Below are positions 1 to 47,045 of a stretch of 64,000 bases of DNA, piece by piece. A model generated the notes under the pieces. That model had not been told where the DNA came from. It saw nothing but the letters and a program-made list of their open reading frames with translations, and ran no database searches. Position 1 is the first letter of the stretch. The number at the start of each line of letters is the position of its first letter. Both the position numbers and the translations under genes were made by a program. The stretch is from the NCBI GenBank assembly GCA_964016885.1, contig OZ024743.1, forward strand, positions 244,156,001 through 244,220,000, given 5' to 3'. This stretch comes from Eledone cirrhosa (taxonomy: Eukaryota).

Positions 1-619
1 GGTTCAATGAAATAAAGTATGAGGCAATTACTGCAGTCGATTTTATTAACTTTCTCCTCCCCGCGAAAATAGTTGGTCTCTCAGCCTAAATTAAAAACCA
101 TTAATATTCTTGTTGTTATCGTTATTTAACTTCAGGTCCGTCCTGATCCAATAGAAGCATGATCAAAATGAGAAAGGTATCCTCAATTTAAAGACTTAAG
201 TCGAAAGCTTGCAACCCAGTGTACTTCGCTAGTCACCAAAGAGTCCTCTGGATGGATTGAACTGTGACAGATTATTTGCCACCTAAGACATTTGAATTTA
301 GAATGCAAAGAACCTGGCCAAACACCACTTCTTGTGCGATGCTATAACAAATCCGCTAACTCATCACCCTGGAGTGCTACATTATTTTATTATTCTAGAA
401 ATGGAGAGGACAAAAGATGACTTCAGCGGGATTTGAACTCTAAGAGTAGAGAGCCGGAACAAATATTTCAAAGCATAATGACTCTCAGTTGGGCATTTTA
501 TCTTTGTTACTTTAGTAATTACCCCCTTATTGCATTGTTAGTGATATCTTATTCTACGATACTATTTGTGTTGTTGACGTTAGTCTTATCAACAATTGCA
601 TTATTGCCACTGTTGTTAG

Positions 620-1849: not shown

Positions 1850-4800
1850 GCTTCTTTGAAGATTTTCAGTAACCACTCAATTTTCAGTGATGAAATAGCT
1901 ATGATAGAAAACTCAAGTACGATTGAAGACTTAGCTCTGATTGAATACTCAGCTATGATTGAAGTCACAACTATGATTGAAGACTCGGATATGATTGAAT
2001 ACTCAACTATGATTGAAGATTCAGCTATTGAAGAGTCAGATCTGAGTGGAGAGTCGACTCCGAATGAAGATTCAGATTTCATCGAAGACTTAATTCTGAT
2101 TGATGGCTCATTTCAGATTAAAGAAACAGCTATGATTGAAGATTTAGCTATGATTGAAGAGATAGCTTTTGCAGAAAAATTAGCTTTGATTGAAGAATCA
2201 ACAATGACAGAGTACAACACTCTCTTTGAAGACTCAGCTTCGATTGATGATTCAACACTGTTTGCGGACTCAGGTTTTATTGAAGAATCAGTTCGGAATA
2301 AAGGTTCACCTAAGATCAACGACGATTTAAGTCCGATTATAGACTCAATTATGGAGGAATACTCAGCTCTAATAAAAAAGTTAGATCTAGTTCCGATTGA
2401 CGACTCAGTTTTAAGAGCAACAAATGAAGACTCATATTTGATTAAACATTCAGCTTTGAATGGTTCAGATGTCATGGATGATTCAACTTTGAATAATGAC
2501 TTAACTGTGATTGAAGAATCCTACCTGAGTGAAGACTCATTTCTCATGGAAGTCCTAGCTGGGATTGAAGACTCAGTTATTATTGACAAATTAGAAGATT
2601 TCATTGAAAACTTAAATTTGATTGAAGATTTTTCTATGATGGAAGACGCGGCGGTGAATAAAGATTCCTCTATGATTGAAAATTCACATTTGACTGAAGA
2701 ATCAGTTCCATTTTACGGATCATCTCTGATTGAAAACCCAGCTGTGACTGAAAACACAAATGTGAATGAAGTTTCAGCTCCCATTGAAGCCCCAAGTGAG
2801 ATGGATGACTCATCTTTGATTGAAAGCTCAACTCTGACTGAATATTCATCTCTAATTCAAGATACAGCTGTAATTGAAAACTCAGCTCTTAGTGAAGCCC
2901 CAAGAGAGATGAAAGACTCGTCTATGATTGAAGACACATCTTTGATTGAAGACTCAATTTCAAAAGACGATTCACTTATAATTGTAGATCCAATTCTGAT
3001 TAATGACTCAACCCTGGTTGATGATTCAGCTGAGATTAAGACTCTATATTTGATGAAAGATTCAGTTCCAATTGAAAGTCAAGCTATGGAGGATGATACA
3101 GATAAGATTGAAGGCTCAGTTCCAATTTTCGGTTCAGCTCTAATTGAAAACCCAGTAGTGACTGAAGACACAAACATGAATGAAGTCTTAGTTCGAATTG
3201 CATATACAGCTTTGATTGAAGACTCTGCTTTGATTGGTGTCTCAACTGAATTTCAGGATTCCCCTTTGATTGAAGATTCAGAAAATGAATGCTCAACTCC
3301 AACTGAAGATCCAACTCTGATTGAAGACTCAAATCTGATTGAAAGATCAGCTCCAATTATAGATCGAGCTCCAGTAGATGACTCGACTATGACTGAAAAT
3401 TCAGTTGTAATTAAAGATTCATCTTTGATTAAAGAATCTATTATTGAATCATCAGCTATGATTGAAAACTCATCTCTCATTACAGACCCACCTTTGATTG
3501 AAGGCTCAACTGTGACTGTCGATTCATCGTTAATTGAAGATCCAGCTGTAGTTGAAGACTCAGAACTTATTGAAGCCTTATATGGGATGGAAGACACATC
3601 TTTGACTGAAGACTCAACTCCGACTGAAGATTCAGCTGCAATTGAAGACTCGGTTCTTCTTAAAGCCCCAAATGAAATGGAAGACTCGTCTTTTATTGAA
3701 GGCTCAACTCTAACAGAAGATTCTTCTCTAATTGAAAATGCAGCTGTAATTGAAGTTTTGGATCTTATTGAAGCCCCAAATGTGATGGAAGACTCATATA
3801 TAATAGAAAACTCATCCTTGATAGAAAACTCATATTTGATTGAAGAATCAATTCCAAAAGAGGATTCACTTATAATTGAAGATCCAATTCTGGTTAATAA
3901 CTCAAATCTGGTTGATGATTCAGCTGAGATTAAGACTTCATATTTGATTGCAGATTCAGTTCCAATTGAAAGTCAAGCTATGGTGGACGATACAGATGAG
4001 ATTGAAGGCGCAGTTCCAATCAATGGATCAGTTCTAATTGAAAACCCAGTAGTGACTCAAGACACAAATCTGATTGAATGGTCAGCTCCAATTGCAGATT
4101 CACCTTTGATTGAAGACTCAACAAGTAAAAGTTCAACTTCAATTGAAGATCTAATTCTGATTGAAAGATCAGCTCCAGGTGTTGATGCAGCTCCATTTGA
4201 AGAGTTAACTATGGCACAAAATTCAGTTGTAAATAAAGATTCATTTGTGATTAAAGAATCTATTACTGAAGAATCTGCTATGATTGAAAACTCATCTCTC
4301 ATTAAAGACCCACATTTGATTGAAGATTCAACTCTGACTGAAGATTCAACTCTGACTGAAGATTCATCTCTAACTGAAGATCCAGCTGTAATTGAAGACT
4401 CGGCTGTTAGTGAAGCCCCAAATGAAATGGAAGACATATCTTTGATTGAAGGCTCAACTCTGACTGAAGATTCATCCTTAATTGAAGATCTAACTGTAAT
4501 TGAAGGCTTGGCACTTATTGAAGCCCCAAGTGAGATGGATGACTCATCTTATTATGAAGGCTCAACTCTGATTAAAATTTCATATCAAATTGAATATCCA
4601 GCTATAATTGAAGACTTGGATCTTATTGAAGCCACAAATGAGATGGAAAACTCGTCTTTGATTGAAGGCTCAACTCTGACAGAAGATTCATCTCTGATTG
4701 ATGATCCAAATACAATTGAAGACTCGGGTCTTAGTGAAGCCCCAACTGAGATGGAAGACTCATCTTTGATTGAAGGCTCAACTCTGACTGAATATTCATT

Positions 4801-7800
4801 TCTAATTGAATATCTAGCTGTAGTTGAAGACTTGGCCCTTATTGAAGCTCCAAGTGAGTTCGATGATTCATCTTTGACTGAAGGCTCAACTCTACCTGAA
4901 GATTCATCCTTAGTTGAAGATCCAGCTGTAATTGAAGACTCGGCTCACAGTGAAGCCCCAAATGAGATAGAAGACGCATCTTTGATTGAAGGCGCATCTT
5001 TGATTGAAGACTCATATTTGATTCAAGACTCAATTCCAAAAGAGGATTCACTTGTAATTGAAGATCCAATTCTGATTAATGACTCAAATCTGGTTGATGA
5101 TTCAGCTGAGATTAAGAATTCATATTTGATTGAAGATTTAGTTCCAATTGAAAACCTAGTAGTGACTCAAGACACATATGTGATTGAAGGGTCAGCTCCA
5201 ATTGCAGATTCACCTTTGATTGAAAACTCGGCAAGTGAAGGCTCAACTTCATTTGACGATCTAACTGTGATTAAAGATTCATTTGAGATTGAAAGATCAG
5301 CTCCATGTGATGATGCAGCTCCAGTTGAAGAGTCAACTTTGACACAAATCTCAGTTGTAAATAAAGATTCATTTGTGATTAAAGAATCTATTACTGAAGA
5401 ATCTGCTATGATTGAAAACTCATCTCTCATTAAAGACCCACATTTGATTGAAGATTCAACTCTGACTGAAGATTCAACTCTGACTGAAGATTCATCTCTA
5501 ACTGAAGATCCAGCTGTAATTGAAGACTCGGCTGTTAGTGAAGCCCCAAATGAAATGGAAGACATATCTTTGATTGAAGGCTCAACTCTGACTGAAAATT
5601 CATCCTTAATTGAAGATCTAACTGTAATTGAAGGCTTGGCACTTATTGAAGCCCCAAGTGAGATGGATGACTCATCTTATTATGAAGGCTCAACTCTGAT
5701 TGAAATTTCATCTCAAATTGAATATCCAGCTATAATTGAAGACTTGGATCTTATTGAAGCCACAAATGAGATGGAAAACTCGTCTTTGATTGAAGGCTCA
5801 ACTCTGACAGAAGATTCATCTCTGATTGATGATCCAAATACAATTGAAGACTCGGGTCTTAGTGAAGCCCCAACTGAGATGGAAGACTCATCTTTGATTG
5901 AAGGCTCAACTCTGACTGAATATTCATTTCTAATTGAATATCTAGCTGTAGTTGAAGACTTGGCCCTTATTGAAGCCCCAAGTGAGTTCGATGATTCATC
6001 TTTGACTGAAGGCTCAACTCTACCTGAAGATTCATCCTTAGTTGAAGATCCAGCTGTAATTGAAGACTCGGCTCACAGTGAAGCCCCAAATGAGATGGAA
6101 GACGCATCTTTGATTGAAGGCGCATCTTTGATTGAAGACTCATCTTTGATTCAAGACTCAATTCTAAAAGAGGATTCACTTGTAATTGAAGATCCAATTC
6201 TGATTAATGACTCAAATCTGGTTGATGATTCAGCTGAGATTAAGAATTCATATTTGATTGAAGATTTAGTTCCAATTGAAAATGAAGGTATGGTGGACGA
6301 TACAGATGAGATTGAAGGATCAGTTCCAATCAATGGATCAGTTCTAATTGAAAACCTAGTAGTGACTCAAGACACATATGTAATTGAAGGGTCAGCTCCA
6401 ATTGCAGATTCACCTTTGATTGAAAACTCAGCAAGTGAAGGCTCAACTTCATTTGACGATCTAACTGTGATTAAAGATTCATTTGAGATTGAAAGATCAG
6501 CTCCATGTGATGATGTAGCTCCAGTTGAAGAGTCAACTTTGACACAAATCTCAGTTGTAAATAAAGATTCATTTGTGATTAAAGAATCTATTACTGAAGA
6601 ATCTGCTATGATTGAAAACTCATCTCTCATTAAAGACCCACATTTGATTGAAGATTCAACTCTGACTGAAGATTCATCTCTAACTGAAGATCCAGTTGTA
6701 ATTGAAGACTCAGCTCTCAGTGAAGCCCCAAATGAGATGCAAGACACATCTTTGATTGAAGGCTCAACTCTGCCTGAAGATTCATCCTTAGTTGAAGATC
6801 CAGCTGTAATTGCAGACTCGGCTGTTAGTAAAGCCCCAATTGAGATGGAAGACGCATCTTTGATTGAAGGCGCATCTTTGATTGAAGACTCATCTTTGAT
6901 TCAAGACTCAATTCCAAAAGAGGATTCACTTGTAATTGAAGATCCAATTCTGATTAATGACTCAAATCTGGTTGATGATTCAGCTGAGATTAAGAATTCA
7001 TATTTGATTGAAGATTTAGTTCCAATTGAAAATGAAGGTATGGTGGACGATGCAGATGCGATTGAAGGATCAGTTCCAATCAATGGATCAGTTCTAATTG
7101 AAAACCCAGTAGTGACTCAAGACACAGATGTGATTGAAGGGTCAGCTCCAATTGCAGATTCACCTTTGATTGAAGACTCAGCAAGTGAAGGCTCAACTTC
7201 ATTTGACGATCTAACTGTGATTAAAGATTCATATGAGATTGAAAGATCAGCTCCATGTGATGATGCAGCTCCAGTTGAAGAGTCAACTATGACACAAAAC
7301 TCAGTTGTAAATAAAGATTCATTTGTGATTAAAGAATCTATTACTGAAGAATCTGCTATGAATGAAAACTCATCTCTCATTAAAGACCCACATTTGATTG
7401 AAGATTCAACTCTGACTGAAGATTCATCTCTAACTGAAGATCCAGCTGTAATTGAAGACTCAGCTGTTAGTGAAGCCCTAAATGAAATGGAAGACATATC
7501 TTTGATTGAAGGCGCATCTTTGATTGAAGACTCATCTTTGATTCAAGACTCAATTCCAAAAGAGGATTCACTTGTAATTGAAGATCCAATTAAGATTAAG
7601 GACTCAAATCTGGTTGATGATTCAGCCGAGATTAAGAATTCATATTTGATTGAAGATTTAGTTCCAATTGAAAATGAAGGTATGGTGGACGATACAGATG
7701 AGATTGAAAGATCAGCTCCATGTGACGATGCAGCTCCAGTTGAAGAGTCAACTATGACACAAACCTCAGTTGTAACTACAGATTCATTTACGTTTGAAGC

Positions 7801-10800
7801 ATCTATCACTGACGAATCTGCTATGATTGAAAATTCATCTCTCATTAAAGACCCACATTTGATTGAAGATTCAACTCTGACTGATGATTCATCTCTAACT
7901 GAAGATCCAGCTGTAATTGAAGACTCAGCTGTTAGTGAAGCCCCAAATGAAATGGAAGACATATCTTTGATTGAAGGCGCATCTTTGATTGAAGACTCAC
8001 CTTTGATTGAAGACTCAATTCCAAATGAGGATTCAATTTTGATCGAAGATCCAATTCTGATTAATGATTCAAATCTGGTTGATGATTCAGCTGAGATGAA
8101 GACTTCATATTTGATTGAAAATTCAGTTTCAATTGAAAGTGAAGCTATGGTGCACGATACAGATAACAATGATGGCTCAGTTCCAATCTCCAGATCAGCT
8201 CTAATTGAAAGCCCAGTAGTGATTGAAGACACAAACATGAATGAAGTCATAGTTCCAATTGCAGATTCAGCTTTGATTGAAAACTCAGCTTTGATTGATG
8301 TCTCAACTGTGTTTCAGGATTCACCTTTGATTGAAGACTCAGTAATTGAAGGCTCAACTCCAATTGAAGATTCAACTCTGATTGAAAACTCAGATTTGAT
8401 TGAAAGATCAGCTCCAGTTGTAGATCCAGCTCCAGTTGAAGATTCAAGTATGATTGAAAATTCAGTTATAACTAAAGATTCATCTTTGATTAAAGAATCA
8501 ATTATTGATACATCAGCTATGATTGAAGACTCATCACTCATTAAAGACTCACCTTTGATTGAAGGCTTAACTGTGACTGAAGATTCATCTCAAATTGAAG
8601 ATCCAGCTGTAATTGAAGACTCGGCTGTTAGTGAAGCCCTAGATGAGATGGAAGATTCATCTTCGATTGACGGCTCAACTCTGACAGATGATTCATCTCG
8701 AATTGAATATCCAGCTTCAACTGAAGACTCGGGTCTTAGTGATGTGACAAGTGATATGGGAGACTCGTGTTTTATTGAGGGCTCAACTCTGACTGAAGAT
8801 TCATCTCAAATTGAAGATCCAGCTTTAATTGAAGACTTGGATATTAATGAAGCCCCAAATGAGATGGAAGACTCGTCTTTGATTGAACGCTCAACTCTGA
8901 CAGAAGTTTCATCTCTAATTGATGATCTAGCTGTAATTGAAGACTCGGATTTTAGTGAAGCCCCAAGTGAGATCGATGATTCATCTTTGACTGAAGGCTC
9001 AATTCTGCCTGAAGATTCATCCTTAATTGAAGATCCAGCTGTAATTGAAGACACGGCTGTTAATGACGCCCCAATTGAGATGGAAGACACATGTTTGATT
9101 GACGACTCAATTCCAAAAGAGGATTCACTTATAATCGAAGATCCAATTCTGATTAATGACTCAAATCTGGTTGATGATTCGGCTGAGACTAAGAATTCAT
9201 ATTTGATTGAAGATTCAGCTCCAATTAAAAGTCATGCTATGGTGGACGATACAGATAAGAATGAAGGCTCAGTTCCAATCACCAGATCAGCTCTAATTGA
9301 AAACCCAGTAGTTGAAGACACAAACATGAATGAAGTCTTAGTTCCAATTGCAGATTCAGCTTCGATTGAAGTCTCAGTTTTGATTGATGTCTTAACTGAG
9401 TTTCAGGATTCACCTTTGATTGAAGACTCAGCAATTGAAGGCTCAACTCCAGAATCAATTATTGAAGCTTCAGCTGTGATTGAAAACTTATCTATCATTA
9501 AAGATGCACCTTTGATTGAAGGCTCAACTTTCACTGAAGATTTATCTCCAATTGAACATCCAGCTGTAATTGAAGACTCGGTTGTTAGTGAAGCCCGAAA
9601 TGAGATGGAAGACGCATCTTTGATTGAAGATTCAACTCTGCCTGAAGATTCATCCTTAATTGAAGATCCAGCTGTAATTGAAGACTCGGCTGTTAGTGAA
9701 GCCGCAATTGAGATGGAAGATGCATCTTTGATTCAAGGCGCATCTTTGATTGAAGACTCATCTTTGATTGAAGAGTCAATTCCAAAAGACAATTCGCTTA
9801 TAATCGAAGATCCAATTCTGATTAATGACTCAGCTCTGGTTAATGATTCAGCTAAAACCTCATATTTGATGGAAGATTCAGTTCCAATTGAAAGTCAAGC
9901 TCTGGTGGACGATACAGATAAGAATGAAGGCTCGGTTCCAATCGCCAGATCAGCTCTAATTGGAAACCTAGATGTGATTGAAGACACAAACATGAATGAA
10001 GTCTTAGTTCAAATTGCAGATTCAGCTTTGATTGAAGACTCAGCTTTGATTGATGTCTCAACTGAGTTTCAGGATTCAACTTTGATTGAAGAGTCAGCAA
10101 TTGAAGGCTCAACTCCAATTGAAGATCCAACTCTGATTGAAGACTCAGATGTGATTGAAAGATCAGCTCCAGTTATAGATCTAGCTCTAGTAGAAAACTC
10201 AACTATGACTGAAGATTCAGTTGTAATTAAAAATTTATCTTTGATTAAAGAATCTATTATTGAAGCGTCAGCTGTGATTGAAAACTCATCTATCATTAAA
10301 GACCAACATTTGATTGAATGCTCAACTGTCACTGAAGATTTATCCACAATTGAAGATCTAGCTGTAATTGATAACTCAGATCTTACTGAAGCCCTAATTG
10401 AGATGGTAGATTCAGCTTTGATTGAAGGCGTAACTGTGACTGTAGATTCATCTCTAATTGAAAATACAGGTGTAATTGAAGACTTGGCTGATAGTGAAGC
10501 CCCAAGTAAGATGGAGGATGCATCTTTGATTGAAAGCCCATCTTTGATAGAAGACTCATCTTTGATTGAAGACTCTGCTTTGATTGATGTCTCAACTGAA
10601 TTTCAGGATTCACCTTTGATTGAACACTCAGCAATTGAAGGCTCAACTCCAATTGATGATACAACTCTCATTGAAGACTCAGATCTGATTGAAAGAGCCG
10701 CTCTAGCTGTGGATCAAGCTCCAGTAGAAGGCTCAATTATGACTGAAAATTCAGTTGTAACAAAAGATTCATCTTTGATAAAAGCATGTATTATTGAAGC

Positions 10801-11494
10801 TTCAGCAATGATTAAAAACTCACCTATCATTAAAGACCCACCCTTGAATGAAGGCTCAACTCTGACTGAAGATTCATCTCTACTTGAAGATCCAGCTGTA
10901 ATTGAAGATTCGGTTCTTAGTGAAGCCCGAAATAAAATGGAAGACGCATCTTTGATTGAAGACGCATCTTTGATTGAAGGCGCATCTTTGATAGAAGACT
11001 CATCTTTGATTGAAGACTCAATTCCAAAAGAGGATTTACTTATAATCGAAGATCCAATTCTGATTAATGACTCAGCTCTGGTTGATGATTCAGCTAAAAC
11101 CTCATATTTGATGGAAGATTCTGTTCCAATTGAAAGTAAAGCTCTGGTGGACGATACAGATAAGAATGAAGGCTCAGTTCCAATCTCCAGATCAGCTCTA
11201 ATTGAAAACCCAGTAGTGATTGAAGACACAAACATGAATGATGTCTTAGTTCAAATTGCAGATTCAGCTGTGATAGAAGACTCTGCTTTGATTGCTGTCT
11301 CAACTGAGTTTCAGGATTCACCTTTGATTGAAGACTCAGCAATTGAAGGCTCAACTCCAATTGAAGATCCAACTCTGTTTGAAGACTCAGATCTGATTGA
11401 AAGATCAGCTCCAGTTGTTGATCAAGCTCTAGTTGAAGATTCAACTATGACTGAAATTACAGTTGTAATTAAAGATTCATCTTTGATTAAATAA
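1850..11494 (+). CDS. Giant acidic repetitive protein exon (>3200 aa; E/D/S/I/L-rich, hexapeptide-periodic xLIEDS); start codon presumably in an upstream exon
   Basis: 9.6-kb stop-free frame in AT-rich DNA made of diverged repeats. Polypyrimidine + AG acceptor (tctttttttag, AG at 1848-1849) puts GCT-TCT-TTG exactly in frame. Ends at TAA 11492-11494, where sibling repeats have GAA. Confidence 0.65.
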   Translation, partial: ASLKIFSNHSIFSDEIAMIENSSTIEDLALIEYSAMIEVTTMIEDSDMIEYSTMIEDSAIEESDLSGESTPNEDSDFIEDLILIDGSFQIKETAMIEDLAMIEEIAFAEKLALIEESTMTEYNTLFEDSASIDDSTLFADSGFIEESVRNKGSPKINDDLSPIIDSIMEEYSALIKKLDLVPIDDSVLRATNEDSYLIKHSALNGSDVMDDSTLNNDLTVIEESYLSEDSFLMEVLAGIEDSVIIDKLEDFIENLNLIEDFSMMEDAAVNKDSSMIENSHLTEESVPFYGSSLIENPAVTENTNVNEVSAPIEAPSEMDDSSLIESSTLTEYSSLIQDTAVIENSALSEAPREMKDSSMIEDTSLIEDSISKDDSLIIVDPILINDSTLVDDSAEIKTLYLMKDSVPIESQAMEDDTDKIEGSVPIFGSALIENPVVTEDTNMNEVLVRIAYTALIEDSALIGVSTEFQDSPLIEDSENECSTPTEDPTLIEDSNLIERSAPIIDRAPVDDSTMTENSVVIKDSSLIKESIIESSAMIENSSLITDPPLIEGSTVTVDSSLIEDPAVVEDSELIEALYGMEDTSLTEDSTPTEDSAAIEDSVLLKAPNEMEDSSFIEGSTLTEDSSLIENAAVIEVLDLIEAPNVMEDSYIIENSSLIENSYLIEESIPKEDSLIIEDPILVNNSNLVDDSAEIKTSYLIADSVPIESQAMVDDTDEIEGAVPINGSVLIENPVVTQDTNLIEWSAPIADSPLIEDSTSKSSTSIEDLILIERSAPGVDAAPFEELTMAQNSVVNKDSFVIKESITEESAMIENSSLIKDPHLIEDSTLTEDSTLTEDSSLTEDPAVIEDSAVSEAPNEMEDISLIEGSTLTEDSSLIEDLTVIEGLALIEAPSEMDDSSYYEGSTLIKISYQIEYPAIIEDLDLIEATNEMENSSLIEGSTLTEDSSLIDDPNTIEDSGLSEAPTEMEDSSLIEGSTLTEYSFLIEYLAVVEDLALIEAPSEFDDSSLTEGSTLPEDSSLVEDPAVIEDSAHSEAPNEIEDASLIEGASLIEDSYLIQDSIPKEDSLVIEDPILINDSNLVDDSAEIKNSYLIEDLVPIENLVVTQDTYVIEGSAPIADSPLIENSASEGSTSFDDLTVIKDSFEIERSAPCDDAAPVEESTLTQISVVNKDSFVIKESITEESAMIENSSLIKDPHLIEDSTLTEDSTLTEDSSLTEDPAVIEDSAVSEAPNEMEDISLIEGSTLTENSSLIEDLTVIEGLALIEAPSEMDDSSYYEGSTLIEISSQIEYPAIIEDLDLIEATNEMENSSLIEGSTLTEDSSLIDDPNTIEDSGLSEAPTEMEDSSLIEGSTLTEYSFLIEYLAVVEDLALIEAPSEFDDSSLTEGSTLPEDSSLVEDPAVIEDSAHSEAPNEMEDASLIEGASLIEDSSLIQDSILKEDSLVIEDPILINDSNLVDDSAEIKNSYLIEDLVPIENEGMVDDTDEIEGSVPINGSVLIENLVVTQDTYVIEGSAPIADSPLIENSASEGSTSFDDLTVIKDSFEIERSAPCDDVAPVEESTLTQISVVNKDSFVIKESITEESAMIENSSLIKDPHLIEDSTLTEDSSLTEDPVVIEDSALSEAPNEMQDTSLIEGSTLPEDSSLVEDPAVIADSAVSKAPIEMEDASLIEGASLIEDSSLIQDSIPKEDSLVIEDPILINDSNLVDDSAEIKNSYLIEDLVPIENEGMVDDADAIEGSVPINGSVLIENPVVTQDTDVIEGSAPIADSPLIEDSASEGSTSFDDLTVIKDSYEIERSAPCDDAAPVEESTMTQNSVVNKDSFVIKESITEESAMNENSSLIKDPHLIEDSTLTEDSSLTEDPAVIEDSAVSEALNEMEDISLIEGASLIEDSSLIQDSIPKEDSLVIEDPIKIKDSNLVDDSAEIKNSYLIEDLVPIENEGMVDDTDEIERSAPCDDAAPVEESTMTQTSVVTTDSFTFEASITDESAMIENSSLIKDPHLIEDSTLTDDSSLTEDPAVIEDSAVSEAPNEMEDISLIEGASLIEDSPLIEDSIPNEDSILIEDPILINDSNLVDDSAEMKTSYLIENSVSIESEAMVHDTDNNDGSVPISRSALIESPVVIEDTNMNEVIVPIADSALIENSALIDVSTVFQDSPLIEDSVIEGSTPIEDSTLIENSDLIERSAPVVDPAPVEDSSMIENSVITKDSSLIKESIIDTSAMIEDSSLIKDSPLIEGLTVTEDSSQIEDPAVIEDSAVSEALDEMEDSSSIDGSTLTDDSSRIEYPASTEDSGLSDVTSDMGDSCFIEGSTLTEDSSQIEDPALIEDLDINEAPNEMEDSSLIERSTLTEVSSLIDDLAVIEDSDFSEAPSEIDDSSLTEGSILPEDSSLIEDPAVIEDTAVNDAPIEMEDTCLIDDSIPKEDSLIIEDPILINDSNLVDDSAETKNSYLIEDSAPIKSHAMVDDTDKNEGSVPITRSALIENPVVEDTNMNEVLVPIADSASIEVSVLIDVLTEFQDSPLIEDSAIEGSTPESIIEASAVIENLSIIKDAPLIEGSTFTEDLSPIEHPAVIEDSVVSEARNEMEDASLIEDSTLPEDSSLIEDPAVIEDSAVSEAAIEMEDASLIQGASLIEDSSLIEESIPKDNSLIIEDPILINDSALVNDSAKTSYLMEDSVPIESQALVDDTDKNEGSVPIARSALIGNLDVIEDTNMNEVLVQIADSALIEDSALIDVSTEFQDSTLIEESAIEGSTPIEDPTLIEDSDVIERSAPVIDLALVENSTMTEDSVVIKNLSLIKESIIEASAVIENSSIIKDQHLIECSTVTEDLSTIEDLAVIDNSDLTEALIEMVDSALIEGVTVTVDSSLIENTGVIEDLADSEAPSKMEDASLIESPSLIEDSSLIEDSALIDVSTEFQDSPLIEHSAIEGSTPIDDTTLIEDSDLIERAALAVDQAPVEGSIMTENSVVTKDSSLIKACIIEASAMIKNSPIIKDPPLNEGSTLTEDSSLLEDPAVIEDSVLSEARNKMEDASLIEDASLIEGASLIEDSSLIEDSIPKEDLLIIEDPILINDSALVDDSAKTSYLMEDSVPIESKALVDDTDKNEGSVPISRSALIENPVVIEDTNMNDVLVQIADSAVIEDSALIAVSTEFQDSPLIEDSAIEGSTPIEDPTLFEDSDLIERSAPVVDQALVEDSTMTEITVVIKDSSLIK

Positions 11495-14400
11495 TCTGTT
11501 ATTGAAGATTCAGCTATGATTGAAAACTCATCTATCATTAAAGACCCATCTGTGACTGAAGGCTCAACTGTCACTGAAGATATATCTCCAATTGTAGATA
11601 TATCTTCAGTGACAGTTGAGCCTTCAATCAAAGATGGGTCTTTAATAATGTAGATGGAGTTGTAATTAATGATTCGGAACTTACTAAAGCCCCAATTAAG
11701 ATGGGAGATTCATCTTTGAGTGAAAACTCAACTGTGACTGAAGATTCATCTCTAATTGAAAATCCAGCTGCAATTGAAGACTCAGCTGTTAGTGATGTGC
11801 CAACTAAGATGGAAGACACATCTTTGATTGAAAGCTCATCTTTGATAGAAGACTCATCTTTGATTGAAGTCTCAGCTTTGATTGATGTCTCAACTGAGTT
11901 TCAGGATTCACCTTTGAATGAAGACTCAGCAATTGAAGACTCAACTCCAATTGAAGATCCAACTCCGATTGAAGAAACAGATCTGATTGAAAGATCAGCT
12001 CCAATTGTAGATCGAGCTCCAGTAGAAAATTCAGTTGTAATGAAAATTCAGTTGTAACGAAAGATTCATCTCTGATTAAAGAATCTATTATTGATGCATC
12101 AGCTAGGATTGAAAACTCATCTATCATTAAAGACCCACCTTCGTTTGAAGGCTCAACTGTCACTGAAGATTTATCTCCAATTGAAGATCTAGCTGTAATT
12201 GATGACTTGGAACTTACTGAAGCTTTAATTGAAGACTCAGCTTTGATTGATGTCTCAACTGAGTTTCAGGATTCAACTTTGATTGAAGAGTCAGCAATTG
12301 AAGGCTCAACTCCAATTGAAGATCCAACTCTGATTGAAGACTCAGATCTGATTGAAAGATCAGCTCCAGTTATAGATCTAGCTCTAGTAGAAAACTCAAC
12401 TATGATTGAAAATTCAGTTGTAATTAAAGATTTATCTTTGATTAAAGAATCTATTATTGAAGCGTCAGCTGTGATTGAAAACTCATCTATCATTAAAGAC
12501 CAACCTTTGATTGAATGCTCAACTGTCACTGAAGAGAATCTCTTATTGAAGCTTCCGCTATGATTGAAAACTCACCTCTCATTAGAGACCCACCTTTGAT
12601 TGATGGTTCAACTGTGACTGAAGATTCATCTTTGCTTGAAGATCTAGCTGTAATTGAAGACTCTGTTTTTAGTGAAGCCCGAAATGAGATGGAAGACACA
12701 TCTTTGATTGAAGATTCCACTCTGCCTGAAGATTCATCCTTAATTGAAGATCCAGCTGTTATTGAAGACTCGGCTGTTAGTAAAACCCCAATTGAGATGG
12801 AAGACACATCTTTGATGGAAGGTGAATCTTTGATAGAAGACCCATCTTTGATTGAAGACTCATCTTTGATTGAAGACTCAATTCCAAATGAGGATTCACT
12901 TATAATCGAAGATCCAATTCTGATTAATGACTCAAATGTGGTTGATGATTCAGCTGAGACTAAGACTTCATATTTGATTGAAGATTCAGTTCCAATTGAA
13001 AGTCAAGCTCTGGTGGACGATACAGATAAGAATGAAGGTTCAGTTGCCATCTCCAGATCAGCTCTAATTGAAAACACAGTAGTGATTGAAGACACAAACA
13101 TGAATGAATTCTTAGTTCCAATTGCAGATTCAGCTTTGATTGAAGACTCTACATTGAATGATATCTCAACTGAGTTTCAGTATTCATCTTTGATTGAAGA
13201 CTCAGCAATTGAAGGCTCAACCCCATTTGAAGATCCAACTCTGATCGAAGACTCAGATTTGATTGAAAGATCAGCTCCAGTTGTAGATCAAGCTCCAGTA
13301 GAGGACTCAACTATGACTGAAAATTCAGTTGTAACAAAAGATTCATCTTTGATTAAAGAATCTATTATTGAAGATTCAGCTATGATTGAAAACTCATCTA
13401 TCATTAAAGACCCACCTTTGATTGAAGGCTCAACTGTCACTGAAGATTTATCTCCAATTAAAGATCTAGCTGTAATTGATGACTCGGAACTTACTGAGGC
13501 CCCAATTGAGATGGGAGATTCATCTTTGATTGAAGGCTCAACTGTGGCTGAAGATTCATCTCTAATTGAAAATCCAGCTACAATTGAAGACTCGGCTGTT
13601 AGGGAAGCCCCAATTGAGATGGAAGACGCATCTTTGATTGAAAGCTCATCTTTGATAGAAGACTCATCTTTAATTGAAGACTCAATTCCAAATGAGGTTT
13701 CACTTATAATCGAAGATCCAATTCTGATTAATGACTCAACTCTGGTTGATGATTTAGCTAAGACTTCATATTTGATGGAAGATTCAGTTCCAATCGAAAG
13801 TCAAGCTCTTGTGGACGATACAGATAAGAATGAAGGTTCAGTTCCCATCTCCAGATCAGCCGTAATTGAAAACCCAGTAGTGATTGAAGACACAAACATG
13901 AATGAAGTCTTAGTTCAAATTGCAGATTCAGCTTTGATTGAAGACTCTCCTCTAATTGGTGTCTGAAATAAAGTCATAGCTGAGACTGAAGACTCAAATA
14001 TTATCGGGGATCCAACTGTTATTGAAGACACATCTTCGATTGGAGACTAGTATTATTGAAAAGCTATATTTTATAGAAGGCTCAGCCCATGTAGAAGACT
14101 CACCTGTTATTAAATATTCAGCTGTAAATGGGGAGACACCTCTAATTAACTTAGCTATGCATGAAATATCAGATCCAATTGAAGACTCAGCTATGATTTA
14201 AAACTCAACTCTGGTTGAAGACCATTGAAAAGTCTGCTATGGATGAAGAATCAACTGTGATTGAAGACATCTCTCATTGAATGCCCAGTTGTGATTGAAA
14301 ACCCAGATATAGTTGAATACTCAACTATTATTGGAGAACCAGCTGTGTTTGAAGACTCAGCTTTTATTGAAAACTCAGCTGTAATTAGACACTCGATTGT

Positions 14401-14559
14401 AACTGGAGAACCAGATTGATGTATAAACTCATTGGTAATTGAAAGCTCAACAAATACTGAGGACTCATCTGTCATTGAATACTCATCTCCGATTGAAGGC
14501 CCAGCTGTGATTGAGAACCAGCTATCAATGAAGGCTCAATTATTATTGAAGAAATAGAT
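11495..14559 (+). pseudogene. Disrupted continuation of the acidic repeat (ORF pieces 11701-12057, 12207-12563, 12560-13966)
   Basis: Same IEDS modules, but interrupted by an inversion, frameshifts and stops. AATAAA at 13967-13972 directly follows the TGA at 13964-13966. Confidence 0.55.
11537..11646. repeat. 110-bp near-perfect palindrome (fold-back inversion)
   Basis: Arms 11537-11587 and 11596-11646 are reverse complements with 2 mismatches; CAATTG at the centre. Confidence 0.9.
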
Positions 14560-14562
14560 TTG

Positions 14563-16050
14563 ATTGAAGACTCATCTCTCATTGAAGAACCAGCTCTCAT
14601 TGAAGAACCATCTCTGTTTGAAGAAGCATCTCTCATTGAAGAACCATCTCTCATTGAAGAACCATCTCTCATTGAAGAACCATCTCTAATTGAAGAAGCA
14701 TCCCTGATTGAAGAACCATCTCTCATTGAAGAACCATCTCTAATTGAAGAACCATCTCTCATTGAAGAACCATCTCTCATTGAAGAACCGTCTCTCATTG
14801 AAGAACCATCTCTCATTGAAGAACCGTCTCTCATTGAAGAACCATCTCTCATTGAAGAAGCATCTCTAATTGAAGAACCATCTCTCATTGAAGAACCATC
14901 TCTCATTGAAGAAGCATCTCTAATTGAAGAAGCATCTCTAATTGAAGAACCATCTCTCATTGAAGAACCATCTCTGATTGAAGAACCATCTCTGATTGAA
15001 GAACCATCTCTCATTGAAGAACCATCTCTCATTGAAGAACCATCTCTGATTGAAGAACCATCCCTGATTGAAGAACCATCCCTGATTGAAGAACCATCCC
15101 TGATTGAAGAACCATCTCTGATTGAAGAACCATCCCTGATTGAAGAACCATCTCTGATTGAAGAACCATCTCTGATTGAAGAACCATCTCTGATCGAAGA
15201 ACCATCTCTCATTGAAGAACCATCTCTCATTGAAGAACCATCTCTCATTGAAGAACCATCTCTCATTGAAGAACCATCTCTCATTGAAGAACCATCTCTC
15301 ATTGAAGAACCATCTCTGATTGAAGAACCATCCCTGATTGAAGAACCATCCCTGATTGAAGAACCATCTCTGATTGAAGAACCATCCCTGATTGAAGAAC
15401 CATCTCTGATTGAAGAACCATCTCTGATTGAAGAACCATCTCTCATCGAAGAACCATCTCTCATTGAAGAACCATCTCTCATTGAAGAACCATCTCTGAT
15501 TGAAGAACCATCCCTGATTGAAGAACCATCTCTGATTGAAGAACCATCTCTGATTGAAGAACCATCTCTCATCGAAGAACCATCTCTCATTGAAGAACCA
15601 TCTCTCATTGAAGAACCATCTCTCATTGAAGAACCATCTCTCATTGAAGAACCATCTCTGATTGAAGAACCATCCCTGATTGAAGAACCATCCCTGATTG
15701 AAGAACCATCCCTGATTGAAGAAGCATCTCTAATTGAAGAACCATCCCTGATTGAAGAAGCATCTCTAATTGAAGAACCATCCCTGATTGAAGAAGCATC
15801 TCTAATTGAAGAACCATCCCTGATTGAAGAAGCATCTCTAATTGAAGAACCATCTCTAATTGAAGAACCATCCTTGATTGAAGAACCATCTCTGATTGAA
15901 GAACCATCCCTGATTGAAGAACCATCTCTGATTGAAGAACCATCCCTGATTGAAGAAGCATCTCTAATTGAAGAACCATCCCTGATTGAAGAACCATCCC
16001 TGATTGAAGAAGCATCCCTGATTGAAGAAGCATCTCTAATTGAAAAACCA
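14563..16050 (+). repeat. 18-bp tandem array ATTGAAGAA(C/G)CATC(T/C)CT(C/G/A), encoding IEEPSL/IEEASL, roughly 80 units
   Basis: Direct reading; ORF 14560-16218 on + and ORF 14472-16157 on - both run through it. Confidence 0.95.
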
Positions 16051-17481
16051 TCTGTGATTGGGGTTTCTATTGGAGACATGGCTGTAATTAAAAATTCAGC
16101 TGTGAGTGAAGACTCAATCGAAAAGATAGTCCGGATGGGTGTCTCAGCCCTGATCAATAACAGAGCCCTGATTGATTATTCAGCTCTGGCTGAAGCATCA
16201 GCACGACTGAATGGATAAATATAACGGATGTCTCTCCTCGACCGCTGGAAGTTAAAACAAAAAAAAACAAAAATAGGAAACACCAGATAAGATTTGACTT
16301 TTGAGTACTTACCACAGCAATATATATTTTGCTGAACAATGAAATAACTGGTACTATTGAACGAAGATCAAACTGGATTTATTAGTTAAAATAACTCGAC
16401 AACATGAGGCCAGGAAGTTGAGCATTAAACTAAATAACTCACAGGATGAATTTCTTCTCTTTTAACTGAGTGCAATTCCAGCCTGTATCGATTATGCTGT
16501 TCAACCCTTCAAACTTGACAAAAGAAATTGTTATTATGTGCTCCAAGTTACTCCCGATCCAAAAGGCTCATAGTCAGAGCGAAATGGTCGTGTCCATTCC
16601 ATTATAATCCAAGACGCAATGCAGCCAGAGCCACATTATATTCAATATATATTTTTCTATGATTTGAGGAAGATTTGACTGCTATTTCTAGCAGGACGAG
16701 CTTAAAGGCTCTTCTCTCATTGATTGTAGCCAGCCATACTTCTCCTCGTCAAAAACTGTTTTTACAACAAATAAAGAAATAGTTTATAAACTGAATAGGA
16801 GAAATGTGAAATTTCATGTTGAATCTGATGCAGAGGGTATCACTGGTATTTTCACAGCGGCAATGGTTTCACCATCTTGTTTGCAGGGTGCAGCTGAAAT
16901 ATATATTGTCTAGCCAAAAGGGTGGAATTTACCTGTGAGATAGAATGCAAAAGTATCGCTGGGATATACCGCATAGTCAAGGGTTTAAAGTCCCTACCCC
17001 TCTATTTCTCTATTCTACTTTTTTTATTTCCTTTTCTCTATTTTTTATCTTTTATTTTAATATATTTTGTAAATCACAATTTTTCTAACCCTTTTATTAC
17101 TAAATCTCCTGAAGTCTGCCTTGGTTCTATGATACAAAACTGTTAATTTTAATGTACTTATATTTTTCTAAAAATCATCAATTGTAATTACCGTATATAC
17201 TTTTTTTTTGTAAATTATTCCTTTGATGAATTAATTTTTTAAAAATTCACCAAAAGATCTACGATGTAAGTCACTCTGTATATGGTATCTCATGTGTAGC
17301 TTCCTTAGTTTATGTTATCCATAATCAAGGCCAAGCAGGAGTACCGCTTTCAAGGAAAAACACCATATTTTGCTGGAGACAAAATAACAAACAAATGTTT
17401 TCAGATTTACCACCATATTGACGGACAGGTGACGAGTAAGTAACGAGATAAGTGAGCAGGTTTACTAGTATGCTGTTGTTG

Positions 17482-18615: not shown

Positions 18616-21600
18616 ACTTTCTTTTTATTTGCCATCAGGGCATCAAAGAGTGGGACATGTACAATGGGGGGAGTTTACATAAAAAGGCGTCTTCAATAAG
18701 GAGGAGGCAATAACAAAATATAAAAATATAAAATATAACAAAAATAAATTGAATAACAAAATCCTCAATAGGGAGGAGGCGCCTTGGGGGGTTCGCCCCC
18801 CCCCCCGAAAAAAATGTGCAACCCTTCTCCTCAGGAGCACAGAGAGAGGATGCTCCCTTGCTCTTTCATCTTTCTCACCTACAGTCTGATGTAGAGTGAA
18901 GGCCCATTCACACGGGCCATTCTCGCCACTTTCACCCATCTTTCATAAAAACGGCTGGGGTGCAACACCTCTCTCTCCATCCTGATCCTTCTTCCGAAAT
19001 GATATCGGAAGAAACGGACCAGTTGTTGGCCAGAGAGGAAGGTATCTGACCTCAGTCCTTTCAGACGCGTCCACCATACAACTTCTTTCACCATGGCTAT
19101 TACGCACAGAAACACCGCCTCTCCTTCGTTTTTGAAGAGGGGAGGCGGCTTGATCGTTACAATAGACTCGGTGGTCAACCGGATCGGTCCCACCCGTGAC
19201 ATCAGTCGTTCGACATAACCCCACAGATCGGCAATGCCCGAGCAGTGTACCAATGCGTGTGCAACGGTTTCCTCGTCGCACACGCATCTGGGACAGATCT
19301 TTTTCGAGGGGTCCTTACCCGGGCGCCCGTGTCTGTAGAGCCTTTCTCGAACTGGCAGAGCCCCTCGGTAGCACTTTCAGGCCAGGGACCTCTGGGAGTT
19401 ATTCATAGGTCCCGGGCTGAATGTCCTAGTGAACAGGTTGGCCAGTTCCTTTTCCTCCATGCCTAGGGCTTCTCCGAGGGCGTGGTCGTACCTGCTAACA
19501 ACCAGCCCTCTATAGAATGACGAGGTGGATTCGCCACCGACAGCCGGGTCCGCCTGCCAGAGAGCCGTGAGCGCCTGGACACACTCGGTGTGCCAGGCGC
19601 CCAGTTTTCTCGGTCTTTGCTTGACCCAGGATTGCAGCTCGGTGAGCGAGACGAGTCTGGGAAAGCTCGCCTCACAAACGGGGCCCACACCGGTTCACCG
19701 GTGAGGAATACCTGGAGGTGCCGTAGCCTTAATGCGTGTTTACGAATCATCAGCCACGGCATCCCCAGCCCTCCTTTCGAAGGGTGTTGACAGCAGATGG
19801 ATCTCCTCACCATAGGAGCCCGCTTCTTCCAAAGGAATTGGAAGAGTGCGCGTTCCATCTTGGCGAGCGTTTCCCTTGGGCAAGGGACGACGGTCAGGCG
19901 GTAGTAGATGAAGGACGCTATATAAGTGTTCGCCACCTCCGCCCGACCTTTCAGGGACAGTTTGCACTCGGCCCACTTCTGGGTCAGTGCAAACACCCTG
20001 TTCGTTACCTCACCCCAGTTCTTCTCCACCTGGAGGTCGGTCCGAACCAGACCCCGAGCAACTTCACCGGACCCTCTGTCCAGCGCCCGACGACGCCATC
20101 GGAGGGCATCGATTTGCCCCTCCACGTGCTGAGTTGCAAACCGATCGACTTGTCCCGGTTCAGCTTAGCCCCTGTAAACCTTTCGTACTCCTCCAGTAAG
20201 GTGTCGATCGCCCCGATTTCCGAGGCCGTCGACACCATTACTGTTACGTCATCGGCGTAGGCCGACACCGCTTTCCGCAATCCCGGTTCCAACGGGATGC
20301 CCTGCAACAACTCCAACTTTCGCAGCAGTGGCTCTAGAGTCATTACATACAGAAGGGAGGACCGCGCGATTTCGAATGGCTCCGAGAGGTAGCCGTTCAC
20401 CTTGACTCTAGAGCAGATGCGGCTGCTGTGCATGGCAGTGATCCAGCCCCTGAAAACGGGTCCGAAGCCTGCCGTCGCTAGCACCGCATCCAGGTAACCA
20501 TGGTCGACCCTATCGAACGCCTTAGATTGATCCAAGTTGATCACCAAAGCCGGGTTCGTTCCCAACCCTCTCTATGATGTATCGCATGAGGTGGAGGTTG
20601 TCATGGATGGACCTGCACGGGATAGCAAATGTCTGCGCATCTCCCACCAGGTTGCCCACGACAAGCACCAACCTCTTTGCTAGCACCTTGGCCAAAATCT
20701 GTAACTCTGTATTTAGCAGAGTTATGGGCCTGAAATTACTTATATCGTCCCCCTTGTTCTCGTCCTTTCTCACTAGCGTGACTACGCCCTTGGTCACAGC
20801 ACAGGGAATTCTCCCGTTCTGTTGCCAGTTGCAGTAGACCGCCTCGAGGAGATCGGGGAACAAGTCCGGCATAGCTAGATATAGTTCGTATGGAAGACCA
20901 TCGAGACCCGGGGATTTGCGTTTGCCACATTGGCTCAGGATGTTCTCTATCTCAGCAGCTGAAATCGGCTCCTCGCAGGACTTCGCCTCCTTGTCCGAGA
21001 GACGCGGCAGGCCGTCGAGATATGGACCGAAGTCCACTTCCCCAACCGGCTTCCCGCCCCTTCCGAACAATCTGACAAAGTGCTTTTGAAAAGCATCGCA
21101 CATCTGCTTAGGTTCAAGGATCACCCGTCCATCCTGGTCTCGCAAAGACCGGATAGTGGATTTACTCCCTCTTTTGGCTTCTGTCACGCGGGCCCAGCTA
21201 ACAGCTTTGGTCCCCTCGTTTCCCAGAGCACGTATTTTGCTTCGGACGATGCAGCCTTCGTGTTTCGCGTCGAAGAACTGGCCCAGGGCCGTTCTCGACG
21301 CTAGCACTCTGGCCACGTCGCCGCTTCTAATTGCCTCTTCTACATTATCTACCAACTCCCTTTCCTTCCTATTTCTATTTGAGACTAACTCCTTACTAAA
21401 TTCTATAGAGACTACTTTAATCTCTCTTTTGAGAGATCCCCACCACCTGCTGTTGACGATGGCGCCCGTCAACCGCTCCTTAACTAAAGTGCTAATCCGG
21501 TCCCTGTAAGCCTTACTTGCCGGTAAGGACAAGTTGAGCTTCCAGTAACCGGGTCCCTGTCTATGCGTTCTGTCAAGGTTGACCATGCAGGTCACTAACT

Positions 21601-22654
21601 TGTGGTCTGAATAGCCAACCATGAGCATTTCTGGACAACTTAAAAAGTCCTTATCCTTATTTCTAACTAAGAACCTATCTAGGTACGACCTAGATGATCC
21701 GCTGCGGTTTTCCCAAGTCCAGGATGGCGCAGTCGGAAAATCTAGTCGATATCTATCGGCCAGGTCAAATCGGCCGATTAACCCTTTGAGGCTGTTACAC
21801 CCCTATCTATCGGGACAGGCCCCTACGTAGTCCCAACGTGCATCTAGGATACCATTCCAGTCCCCCACTAATAGCAAGGAACGAGACGTCACTAGAAAAG
21901 TCTCCAGACGATAGAAGAAGTCCGGCCGCGTTGACCCGAAAGGGCCGTAGACGGCTACCAGCCTAAACGCTCCGCCTTCACCACTGCCAAGGTCCAGTAC
22001 CACTAGTCGACCCTCCGGGTCCAAATGTACCGTCTGGTTTGCGAGACCCAGATGTTTTTGCAGCAGAACGACAACCCCACCCCCACCTCCGGGCTGACAG
22101 AGCGATGCGTGCATCTCAAAGTCATCAAAGGTGGGGGCCAGCTGTCGCACGTTGCTGATCCGGGCCTCGCAAATAACCATCACATCTATACGTTGTGACC
22201 TGAGGTCATTTAGAAGCATTGCTTGCTTCCAAGTTGAGCCCAGGCCACGCGCATTTAGACAACCTACTCTCAGCATAGCCATGTTGGTGGTGAAGAGAAA
22301 AGGCACTTACCTCTCTGCGTCCCGGGTATCGGGCTGCACAATTTCCATGAGGGTGGGGGATGGGTTGTTGTGTGGGGTGGTGGTTTGTGGAAGTGTAGGG
22401 GCATCAGTGTGTTGTGTGGTTGGGGTGTTTGGAGTTGTGTGGGTGTTTGGGGAGGGGGTGGGAAATTTTTTTAGGAGGACGCGGTTAATGGGCCCGGCGC
22501 AGGGGGGGGGGGGGGCACGTCCTCTTTAAAGTTGTTTTTTAGCGTTTTATATGTGTCCTCTGGGGCCTTAATCATTTTGAGGTGGGGGAAATCCCCTGCC
22601 TGGGAGAAGTTAGGCCCATGGGTTTTCACTAAATTGTTGTATACAATGTTTAGC
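18616..22654 (-). mobile_element. Tx1-clade (L1-like) LINE copy 1, truncated within ORF1; frameshifted ORF2 (APE endonuclease, RT, CCHC finger)
   Basis: CLNARGL, GDWN, SDH, GPGYWKLN, NFRPITLLN, DQSKAFDRV, AYADD, GGLG motifs. 17-bp TSD AGGTATATTGATA(A/G)ATA at 18599-18615 and 22655-22671. Confidence 0.93.
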
Positions 22655-22971
22655 AGGTATATTGATAGATATGTCGCTAAATAGGTAAGTTGGTTTATTG
22701 CTGTGTTGACAAATTGGTAACTAGATAGGCAAGTAGATTTTCAGTCTGTTAATAGATAGGTAGCTATAATGGCAAGCTTTACTGATTTTGGTAGATAGTT
22801 TGTTGGTAGGTATGACCGTGAATCGGTCAGTTAGTGGGCAAGATTGTTAACAGATAAATAGTGATTCAGACAGACATCAAACACAACGGGAAAGATAGAA
22901 TGGGTTAATAAAACATAAGATAAGAGAGAGAGGGGGAGGGTGAGAGGGTATGATGGGTAGGTAGATAGATA

Positions 22972-25900: not shown

Positions 25901-26463
25901 TCCAGTATCCGGGTCCCTGTCTATGTGTTCTATCAAGGTTGACTATGCAGGTGACTAATTTGTGGTCTGAATAGGCAACCATGTGCATTTGTGGACAGCT
26001 TAATGTTTCCTTATCATTCTGTCTAATTAAAAATCTATCTAAATACGATCTAGAAGACCCAGTGCGGTTGCTCCACGTCTACAGTGGTACACTTGAGAAG
26101 TCTAGTCGATATCTATCAGCCAGCTGGAATTGGCTGATGAGATTTTTGAGGCTATTACACCACCCTCTATTATCACAAGCTCCTACATAATCCCAACATG
26201 CATCTAAGATGCCATTCCAGTCCCCCGCTAACCCTAAGGAGCGAGACGCTCCCAGGAATGGCTCCAGACGCTTGAAGAACTCTGGTCGCGATGTCCCAGT
26301 CGGGGCATATACGGTCACCATTCTGAAAGCTCCACCTTCACTACCATTCACGTCCAGGACCACAAAGCTGCCCTCCGGGTCCAAATGAATCGTCTGTGCT
26401 TTGAGATCCAAGTTTTTTTCGAAACACAACAGCAACTCCCCCTCCACATCCTGGCTGGCAGAG
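22972..26463 (-). mobile_element. Tx1-clade LINE copy 2, truncated within the endonuclease; multiple frameshifts
   Basis: Same ORF2 motifs (RQGCPLS, AYADD, CPRC..ETVLH...C). 3' end AATAAAGAAAGA abuts TATCTATC; the 5' end joins (GATA)n at ~26463-26480. Confidence 0.92.
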
Positions 26464-31700: not shown

Positions 31701-32210
31701 GTCGAGTAACCCCTTGAGGCTGTTACACCCCCCTCTATTAGGACATGCTCCTGCATAGTCCCAACGTGCATCTAGGATGTCATTCCAATCCCCCGCTAGA
31801 AGCAGGGAACGCGACGTTCCCAGAAAAGTCTCCAAACGCTGGAAGAAGTCGGGCCGTTCAGCTCCGAAAGGGGAGTAGACGGCGACCAGTCTCAAGGCCG
31901 CACTTTCACTACTGCCAACGTCTAGCACCAACAAACGAACCTCCGGGTCCGAGTGCACAACCTGTACGGCAAGATCCAGGTGTTTTTGCAGCAGTACGAC
32001 AATCCCACCCCCACCTCCAGGTTGACAGAGAGATGCATGCACCTCAAAGTCATCGAAGGTGGGGGCCAGCTGCCGCACGACGCTGATTCGAGTCTCACAG
32101 ATAACCATTACATTTATACTACATGACCTGAGGTCATTTAGAAGCTTTGCTTGCTTCCAAGTTGAGCCCAGGCCACGTGCATTCAAACATCCTACTCTTA
32201 ACACATCCAT
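28774..32210 (-). pseudogene. Tx1 ORF2 (APE endonuclease-RT-zinc finger) with two in-frame TGA stops (31344-31346, 29667-29669) and one frameshift (~29550)
   Basis: ORFs 31344-32210, 29667-31319 and the start of 29070-29657 share one frame; the C-terminus continues in 28774-29583. Confidence 0.9.
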
Positions 32211-34174: not shown

Positions 34175-34396
34175 AATTTTTTAAAACAGGTTTTTCACCT
34201 CTAGGAGGGGTAAAGATGAGCTGACCCACCGCCTGACAGTTCAGACGGGGGGGGGGGGGGTCAAGTTACACAATTGTATCAAAATTAAGTTTGAACTCAC
34301 AAAATTTCCTCAATAAATTTGAACAAAACTTCTGCGCGAAGTGAATTACATCCACACTGTAGAACAGACGACAGCTAGATTAATATATATAGAGAG

Positions 34397-37926: not shown

Positions 37927-38821
<895 letters not shown>

Positions 38822-41480: not shown

Positions 41481-41879
41481 TTACCCCACAAACAACATGA
41501 TGACCATCACCAGGACTCTCACATCTACCACTACAACTACAATAACCACCACCACCACCACCACCACCACCACTGCCACTACTACTACTACCACAACCAC
41601 TGCCACCCCACCGCCAACAACAATAACTACAACAACCTCGATCAAAAAAACGCAGAAAAAATTCAAAGTAGTAAAGTGTAAAACTATACAGTTTCTCTGG
41701 GCATGTGTGGAATGTTGCAGCAATTATAGAATGGTGAGATGGGTGAGGAGTAGGATGAGGCTGGGAAGAAGGATGGTGGTAGGAGGTAGGATGGGACATT
41801 AGAGGTTTGGGGTGAAAGAGAGAAAAAGTGTAGGAGGAGGGAAAGTTAGAGGCTGAGAGATAAATCGTAAGTTATATAT

Positions 41880-46845: not shown

Positions 46846-47045
46846 NNNNNNNNNNNNNNNNNNNNNNNNNNNNNNNNNNNNNNNNNNNNNNNNNNNNNNN
46901 NNNNNNNNNNNNNNNNNNNNNNNNNNNNNNNNNNNNNNNNNNNNNNNNNNNNNNNNNNNNNNNNNNNNNNNNNNNNNNNNNNNNNNNNNNNNNNNNNNNN
47001 NNNNNNNNNNNNNNNNNNNNNNNNNNNNNNNNNNNNNNNNNNNNN
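46846..47045. other. Assembly gap (200 N)
   Basis: Direct reading. Confidence 1.

Follow-up and report, generated by a model that had tools for sequence, protein, structure and literature searches.

The window, i.e. the whole stretch of 64,000 nucleotides of Eledone cirrhosa DNA analysed here, carries on its forward strand a giant open frame that translates into an acidic hexapeptide repeat. In the reading that we favor, to which we give about an even chance, this frame is one giant coding exon, probably the last, in a gene with several exons; it would encode a mostly unfolded, polyanionic spacer of ~3200 residues that would work by length and charge and that seems to be shortening from its 3' end. 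That the frame is stop-free for more than 3200 codons had been stated in the original prediction and holds; the array does not stop with the open reading frame (ORF) at 11494 but continues with a broken tail to about 16.2 kb. The region divides into the following features:

1770 to 1849, + strand: likely intron end, consisting of a T-rich stretch, (TA)n, and nine pyrimidines plus AG (from the sequence)
1850 to 11494, + strand: acidic hexapeptide-repeat ORF, likely one giant coding exon (3214 codons, zero internal stops)
1850 to 2760, + strand: single-copy, degenerate 5' part of ~300 codons (single contig, flat depth)
2761 to 11491, + strand: higher-order array of 108-bp/36-aa units and ~190-aa blocks (module alignment)
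11492 to 11494, + strand: TAA in the middle of a module, GAA (Glu) in other copies, ending the ORF (module comparison)
11495 to 14514, + strand: decayed continuation of the array (register-tracking alignment, ORF list)
13964 to 13972, + strand: TGA, then immediately AATAAA (from the sequence)
14515 to 16218, + strand: 567-codon open frame with 82 near-identical SLIEE[PA] units at 14575-16050 (ORF list)

The remaining five frames across 1850-11494 carry 359, 516, 374, 37, and 173 stops. Antisense coding was rejected, the best minus frame having 37 stops and the third-position variants of Leu in the SLIEEP block being silent in the sense frame only. The ORF product has a computed mass of 346 kDa and a net charge of -708. 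As predicted, it is dominated by S (14.8%), E (13.5%), I (11.7%), D (11.6%), and L (9.0%), which together account for 61% of the residues (D+E 25%), and is poor in basic residues (K+R 3.1%, Lys 2.4%) and Cys (n = 9). Neither a signal peptide nor a membrane segment is visible in the ORF by inspection. Amino-acid autocorrelation, computed up to lag 40, amounts to 0.25-0.29 at lags 6-36 vs 0.02-0.12 at the others, confirming the proposed 6-residue rhythm, and the hexamer position profile, I57/E65/D53/S61/[A,S,T,V]/[L,V,P] (numbers in %), gives the consensus I-E-D-S-[AST]-[LVP], position 1 being occupied by I (57%), T (12%), V (7%), M (6%), N (5%), or S (5%). The DNA of the array has an 18-bp unit plus 54-bp, 108-bp, and longer periods, so that the rhythm is to be understood as the translated 18-bp unit and needs no fold. 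The consensus 18-bp unit lacks a stop in the ORF frame and in one antisense frame.

At the 5' boundary, the TAG closing the pyrimidine run at 1849 is both the in-frame stop bounding the ORF and a candidate phase-0 acceptor. The same context of pyrimidine run and AG is found at only 7 of the 4629 stop triplets elsewhere in the window, a rarity that favors a real phase-0 acceptor at 1849/1850. The single exon and the in-frame acceptor of the original prediction are putative: the phase hangs on an exon upstream of the window, and an acceptor at 1888 or an ATG at 1901 may be the start instead. An ATG followed by five codons up to AAG|GTATCC, a weak phase-0 donor, lies at 159-178 (+); this donor would join the 1850 acceptor in frame, which may be chance. 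Contigs from three public runs, all from a single sample that is perhaps the assembly's own source and thus not independent, match 1460-2812 with zero substitutions. One single contig of flat depth extends over the putative intron and exon, i.e. the runs behave as DNA and are therefore silent on expression.

The whole array of 18-bp units measures 14.4 kb, and the ORF is its intact 5' two-thirds. Between 2761 and 11491 we counted 31 of the 36-aa units, arranged in runs of 1-6 that alternate with ~11 copies of the ~190-aa block, and recent duplications aligned within the array are 82-96% identical. Duplication is nested, from the 18-bp unit via the 108-bp unit to modules of roughly 0.5-1.1 kb. 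Segment 12221-12535 of the frameshifted tail is 98% identical to segment 10024-10338 of the ORF, which points to gene conversion or a recent duplication that crossed the coding boundary.

Selection was assessed in five blocks of paralogous copies comprising 2281 of the 3214 codons, with identical rows collapsed. The 250 distinct single-base changes between modules comprise 200 missense, 50 synonymous (61-69 expected), and no nonsense changes (8.5-11.3 expected for kappa 3 to 1.5), where counts of distinct changes saturate and the nonsense test is inflated since the ORF was picked for its openness. Codon models yielded omega values of 1.07, 1.24, 1.17, and 0.74 for four of the five blocks, the fifth giving no optimised value, and gene conversion between 12221-12535 and 10024-10338 breaks the tree assumption behind these values. 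The dN/dS comparison between modules that had been suggested as a check thus resulted in omega about 1 with no synonymous excess; a lack of synonymous bias among the repeat substitutions had been named beforehand as a sign against the prediction, and the bias is indeed absent. Changes of ILVM to hydrophobic or polar residues occur in a ratio of 30:16 vs about 31:19 under neutrality (all ILVM positions pooled), i.e. ILVM residues are not preferentially retained and the conserved aliphatic core of a left-handed β-helix was not found. D/E losses (42 vs 38 expected) give no sign that acidic residues are spared either, and acidity itself is under no measurable recent selection.

As a control we evaluated the antisense frames, two of which exhibit no stop depletion (19 vs 15.8 and 15 vs 19.8); stops are depleted in the third (6 vs 17), mostly owing to the overlap of its stops with stops in the sense frame. 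Register shifts, as determined by register-tracking alignment, are in frame in 29 of 29 cases in the ORF, many of them copies of one event, vs 12 of 19 in the tail. The absence of nonsense changes, the in-frame shifts, and the acceptor context together argue that the frame is protected and support the original view of a non-random, probably coding frame, which appears to be kept open while its residues drift freely.

The original prediction had recognised no known family. This is wrong, as Pfam LED_rpt (PF20854) matches the ORF with 419.3 bits over 22 stretches (gathering threshold 59) and LbH_EIF2B (PF25084) with 159 bits (cut-off 54); the 5' part at 1850-2760 scores 43 bits with LED_rpt, under the cut-off. 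LED_rpt also matches unrelated proteins weakly (7 of 11, all below cut-off, e.g. a UvrD helicase tail), suggesting that the match to the ORF may be convergent, and a literature search, mostly without full texts, found no paper on the LED repeat or on this protein. Three word-based protein searches, covering proteins of up to 5625 aa, returned no homologue among 2669 candidates of near length, none among 5683 candidates of 453-2000 aa, and 3 matches among 7999 shorter candidates, all three being unrelated proteins with repeat patches. An HMMER scan of all representatives gave 40 weak matches at E<=0.001 with 15-44% identity but none at 1e-30 (best E 8.5e-15, 21% identity), and the 14 matched stretches inspected are simple periodic repeats in unrelated proteins. 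None of 55 pattern matches in metagenome contigs was confirmed, the best score in the ESM Atlas was an uninformative 0.80, and Rfam gave 0 matches. With no close relative among about 15 billion predicted proteins, the ORF has the look of a lineage-specific, LED-repeat-like giant acidic repeat exon. Titin PEVK E-rich exons, neurofilament tails, Plasmodium Pf332/Pf11-1, and molluscan Asp-rich shell proteins are presumably comparable in being acidic, repeat-encoded, of low complexity, and fast-evolving, but our searches detected no sequence relationship between any of them and the ORF.

A β-solenoid rod had been preferred over disorder, and part of this proposal stands. The hexapeptide motif of left-handed β-helices, [LIV]-[GAED]-X2-[STAV]-X (as given in the part of PMC3046976 considered), is found in 207 of about 535 hexamers vs 99 ± 9 in 200 shuffled sequences and, together with the LbH_EIF2B match, speaks for the rod. 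The hexapeptide motif and register are shared with the left-handed β-helix superfamily (LpxA, NeuO, γ-carbonic anhydrase, eIF2B-ε LbH; PF25084). The superfamily members, however, have tens of hexamers, and the ORF differs further in being 25% acidic, in its frequent Pro, in lacking a catalytic or other domain, and in having neither a predicted fold nor constrained core positions. The structure prediction asked for was carried out with AlphaFold2, and neither of the two blocks folded: a 364-aa block resulted in a mean pLDDT of 42.8 and a pTM of 0.11 and a 146-aa block in values of 53.8 and 0.10, both without secondary structure, and the triangular parallel β-helix with three hexapeptides per coil did not appear. 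As the input consisted of only 22 paralogous rows and ions were absent, this failure is weak evidence, made slightly more telling by the tendency of AlphaFold2 to over-predict confident β-solenoids for near-perfect repeats (as described in the part of PMC11795689 considered). In a charge-hydropathy comparison the ORF product falls by a tiny margin to the disordered side of the boundary (0.486 vs 0.492), and an Ile+Leu+Val content of 27% is high for a disordered tract. A strict 29-residue hexapeptide pattern has 0 matches in the ORF, and a PDB sequence search with the ORF gave chance matches only (best E 0.29). A stable β-solenoid rod is thus not supported, given the pTM values, omega about 1, and aliphatics not being preferentially retained.

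What survives of the fold is a conditional version, in which Ca2+ or other cations would induce a left-handed β-helix rod. We consider this minority reading unlikely. The fit of the hexamer profile to the LbH motif and the scores of both Pfam families argue for it, the 54-bp and 108-bp periods would correspond to one and two coils, and the two Ser/Thr-starting hexamers of the 36-aa unit would share a face. Multiples of 18 bp come from the DNA unit anyway, however, and the would-be core is under no selection, Pro occupies 13% and 12% of hexamer positions 4 and 6, respectively, like charges would stack, neither AlphaFold2 run gave a fold, and the strict 29-residue pattern and the PDB search gave no meaningful match. 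An extended scenario, highly speculative and in our estimate improbable, would have an 18-bp minisatellite turned de novo into a giant exon in an octopus lineage, encoding a Ca2+-switchable polyanion whose micron-long coil zips into a ~90 nm left-handed β-helix rod as cations neutralise the E/D ladders, its length being adjusted by the duplication of modules and by a stepwise 3' truncation that is still under way.

Composition would also suit a secreted, phosphorylated acidic matrix protein of statolith, stylet, egg case, or cement, with a signal peptide on an upstream exon, that binds Ca2+ and steers mineral or glue formation. The ORF contains 25% D+E, 15% Ser, 167 [ST]xx[DE], and 30 N-x-[ST] motifs, and genes for secreted biomaterials typically have giant repeat exons and a fast turnover. 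The usual motif of secretory kinases is S-x-E, [ST]xx[DE] being of the CK2 type, and only 21 S-x-E sites face the 167 CK2-type sites. As the ORF itself displays no signal peptide or membrane segment and the homologue searches gave no match to named shell or egg proteins, we regard such a function as quite unlikely.

The array 3' of the ORF bears on the question of whether the frame is coding at all. From 11492 on we found four in-register stops (11492, 13964, 14199, 14417) and seven frameshifting register shifts (near 11647, 12041, 12538, 14049, 14224, 14268, and 14515), i.e. 11 lesions in 3.0 kb vs 0 in the preceding 9.6-kb ORF. Four of them are spread over the 2.5 kb up to 13964 and seven are packed into the next 0.55 kb, and this change from sparse to dense suggests two successive truncations, the TGA with its adjoining AATAAA at 13964-13972 possibly being an older end of the coding frame. 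A 477-codon open piece persists in the decayed tail at 12533-13966, and the frame at 14515-16218 was probably once the C-terminal part of the exon that holds the ORF. Two ORFs of the tail match LED_rpt with 79 and 124 bits, both above cut-off, the higher score belonging to the SLIEEP frame. Among the variants in the SLIEEP block 6 of 10 distinct and 5 of 6 recurrent ones (present in more than one unit) are synonymous (~30% expected), a small-number hint of past coding. The lesions could also be haplotype-specific or assembly errors. Removal of the broken tail by splicing is unsupported, as the seven donor-like sites in the ORF all have A at -1 and lie inside repeat units and a good acceptor before 14515 was not seen.

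Broken from 11492 on, with omega about 1 and no orthologue found in the homologue searches, the array might be a non-coding minisatellite or an already dead gene, open only because the 18-bp unit lacks a stop, as its consensus does in the ORF frame and in an antisense frame, and because recent duplication copied few mutations. Nonsense changes are missing where 8.5-11.3 are expected, however, and all lesions are on the 3' side, with the three post-stop frameshifts falling within the last 2.5 of 12.1 kb (chance ~0.009). Moreover, the single-copy 5' 300 codons remain open at 27% mismatch to the 18-bp unit, and the acceptor context at 1849 and the synonymous skew of the SLIEEP block speak against it as well, so that we hold a non-coding or dead array to be decidedly improbable.

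In a special case of the favored spacer exon, the ORF would be the giant-ankyrin long exon of this animal. As far as the part of PMC5135030 considered describes them, the long exons of ankyrins have a mean length of 8103 bp, quickly lose homology, and contain about 25% Ser+Glu; the array in Drosophila has been postulated to be a spacer, and in protostomes, including Aplysia and Lottia, the long exon is located downstream of the death domain, which would place the ankyrin core (ANK-ZU5-ZU5-UPA-death domain) upstream of the window, where 1.85 kb precede the ORF. Like these giant exons (Drosophila Ank2-XL, UNC-44, Aplysia) the ORF would be a multi-kb, Ser/Glu-rich single exon with a lineage-specific repeat array lacking outside homology, and its size of 9.6 kb, its Ser+Glu content of 28.3%, and its 3' position fit. 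Its S+E+T+D+K+P content is 52.9%, below the >55% given there, it is far richer in Ile/Leu and has little Lys (2.4%), its repeat fills the whole exon with no unique stretch, and the mollusc repeat consensuses tabulated in that part of PMC5135030 are unrelated. A weak match from the HMMER scan (P0010, Salvelinus, E 7.6e-9) appears on inspection to be an ankyrin with a 12-residue repeat in its long region, but the match is limited to this repeat and looks convergent; with no ankyrin exon found in the window, where the best 20 tblastn rows all lie within the array, an ankyrin exon is very unlikely.

In the favored model of a largely unfolded spacer, the exons preceding the repeat exon would be located upstream of the window and spliced to it at 1849/1850, splicing and translation being deduced from the DNA. 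Inclusion of this exon would add a strongly negative chain of ~3200 residues, acting as a length- and charge-dependent spacer or a cation-binding brush. The array would have grown by nested duplication of 18-bp, 108-bp, and larger modules, with selection holding the frame open and leaving the residues free, as judged from the statistics of paralogous copies. Its open frame probably used to extend over about 4790 codons to 16218, and the array may then have been shortened stepwise from its 3' end, near 13964 in a first step and at 11492 in a later one, leaving a decaying tail behind; the polarisation of lesions to the 3' side is the basis for this order of events.

The surroundings of the array in the window include microsatellites, LINE copies, and a short dispersed repeat, an ensemble that resembles octopus genomes. 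On the minus strand, a non-LTR retrotransposon (endonuclease, RVT_1 reverse transcriptase) is present in three copies at about 18700-26450 and 28700-34200, each broken by stops or frameshifts, the third also having a 660-aa ORF1-like frame (32198-34180, -), and two related fragments at about 34850-35440 and 37975-38630 (-) look by eye like mariner-type transposases. An exon-like island at 39556-39750 (+) combines a strong polypyrimidine acceptor (…ctttctacaatttgcag) with ~64 open codons to a TAG; it has no Pfam match and could serve the host gene, or a different one, as terminal exon. Just 3' of it, at 39885-41500, an ACC-rich compound repeat of 46-64% GC and extreme skew is open over several long frames on either strand, those on the plus strand being rich in Thr/Ala, and is probably a satellite. 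An intact 390-codon ORF of ordinary complexity and without Pfam match at 61466-62638 (+) is reminiscent of DNA-transposon-borne proteins, a short tandem array located at the window end (63330-63905, +) has an open frame, and a 200-N assembly gap spans 46846-47045.

The open frame is thus apparently protected while its amino acids evolve neutrally, and the protected and the released parts adjoin in one array, which makes the array a test bed for the birth, lengthening, and trimming of giant repeat exons. Annotations may lack such exons, given that no relative was found among about 15 billion predicted proteins. Should the chain stay unfolded, a Pfam β-helix match on an acidic repeat need not imply a fold; if it folds on Ca2+, it would be an unusually long natural β-helix and a candidate template for mineral or cement.
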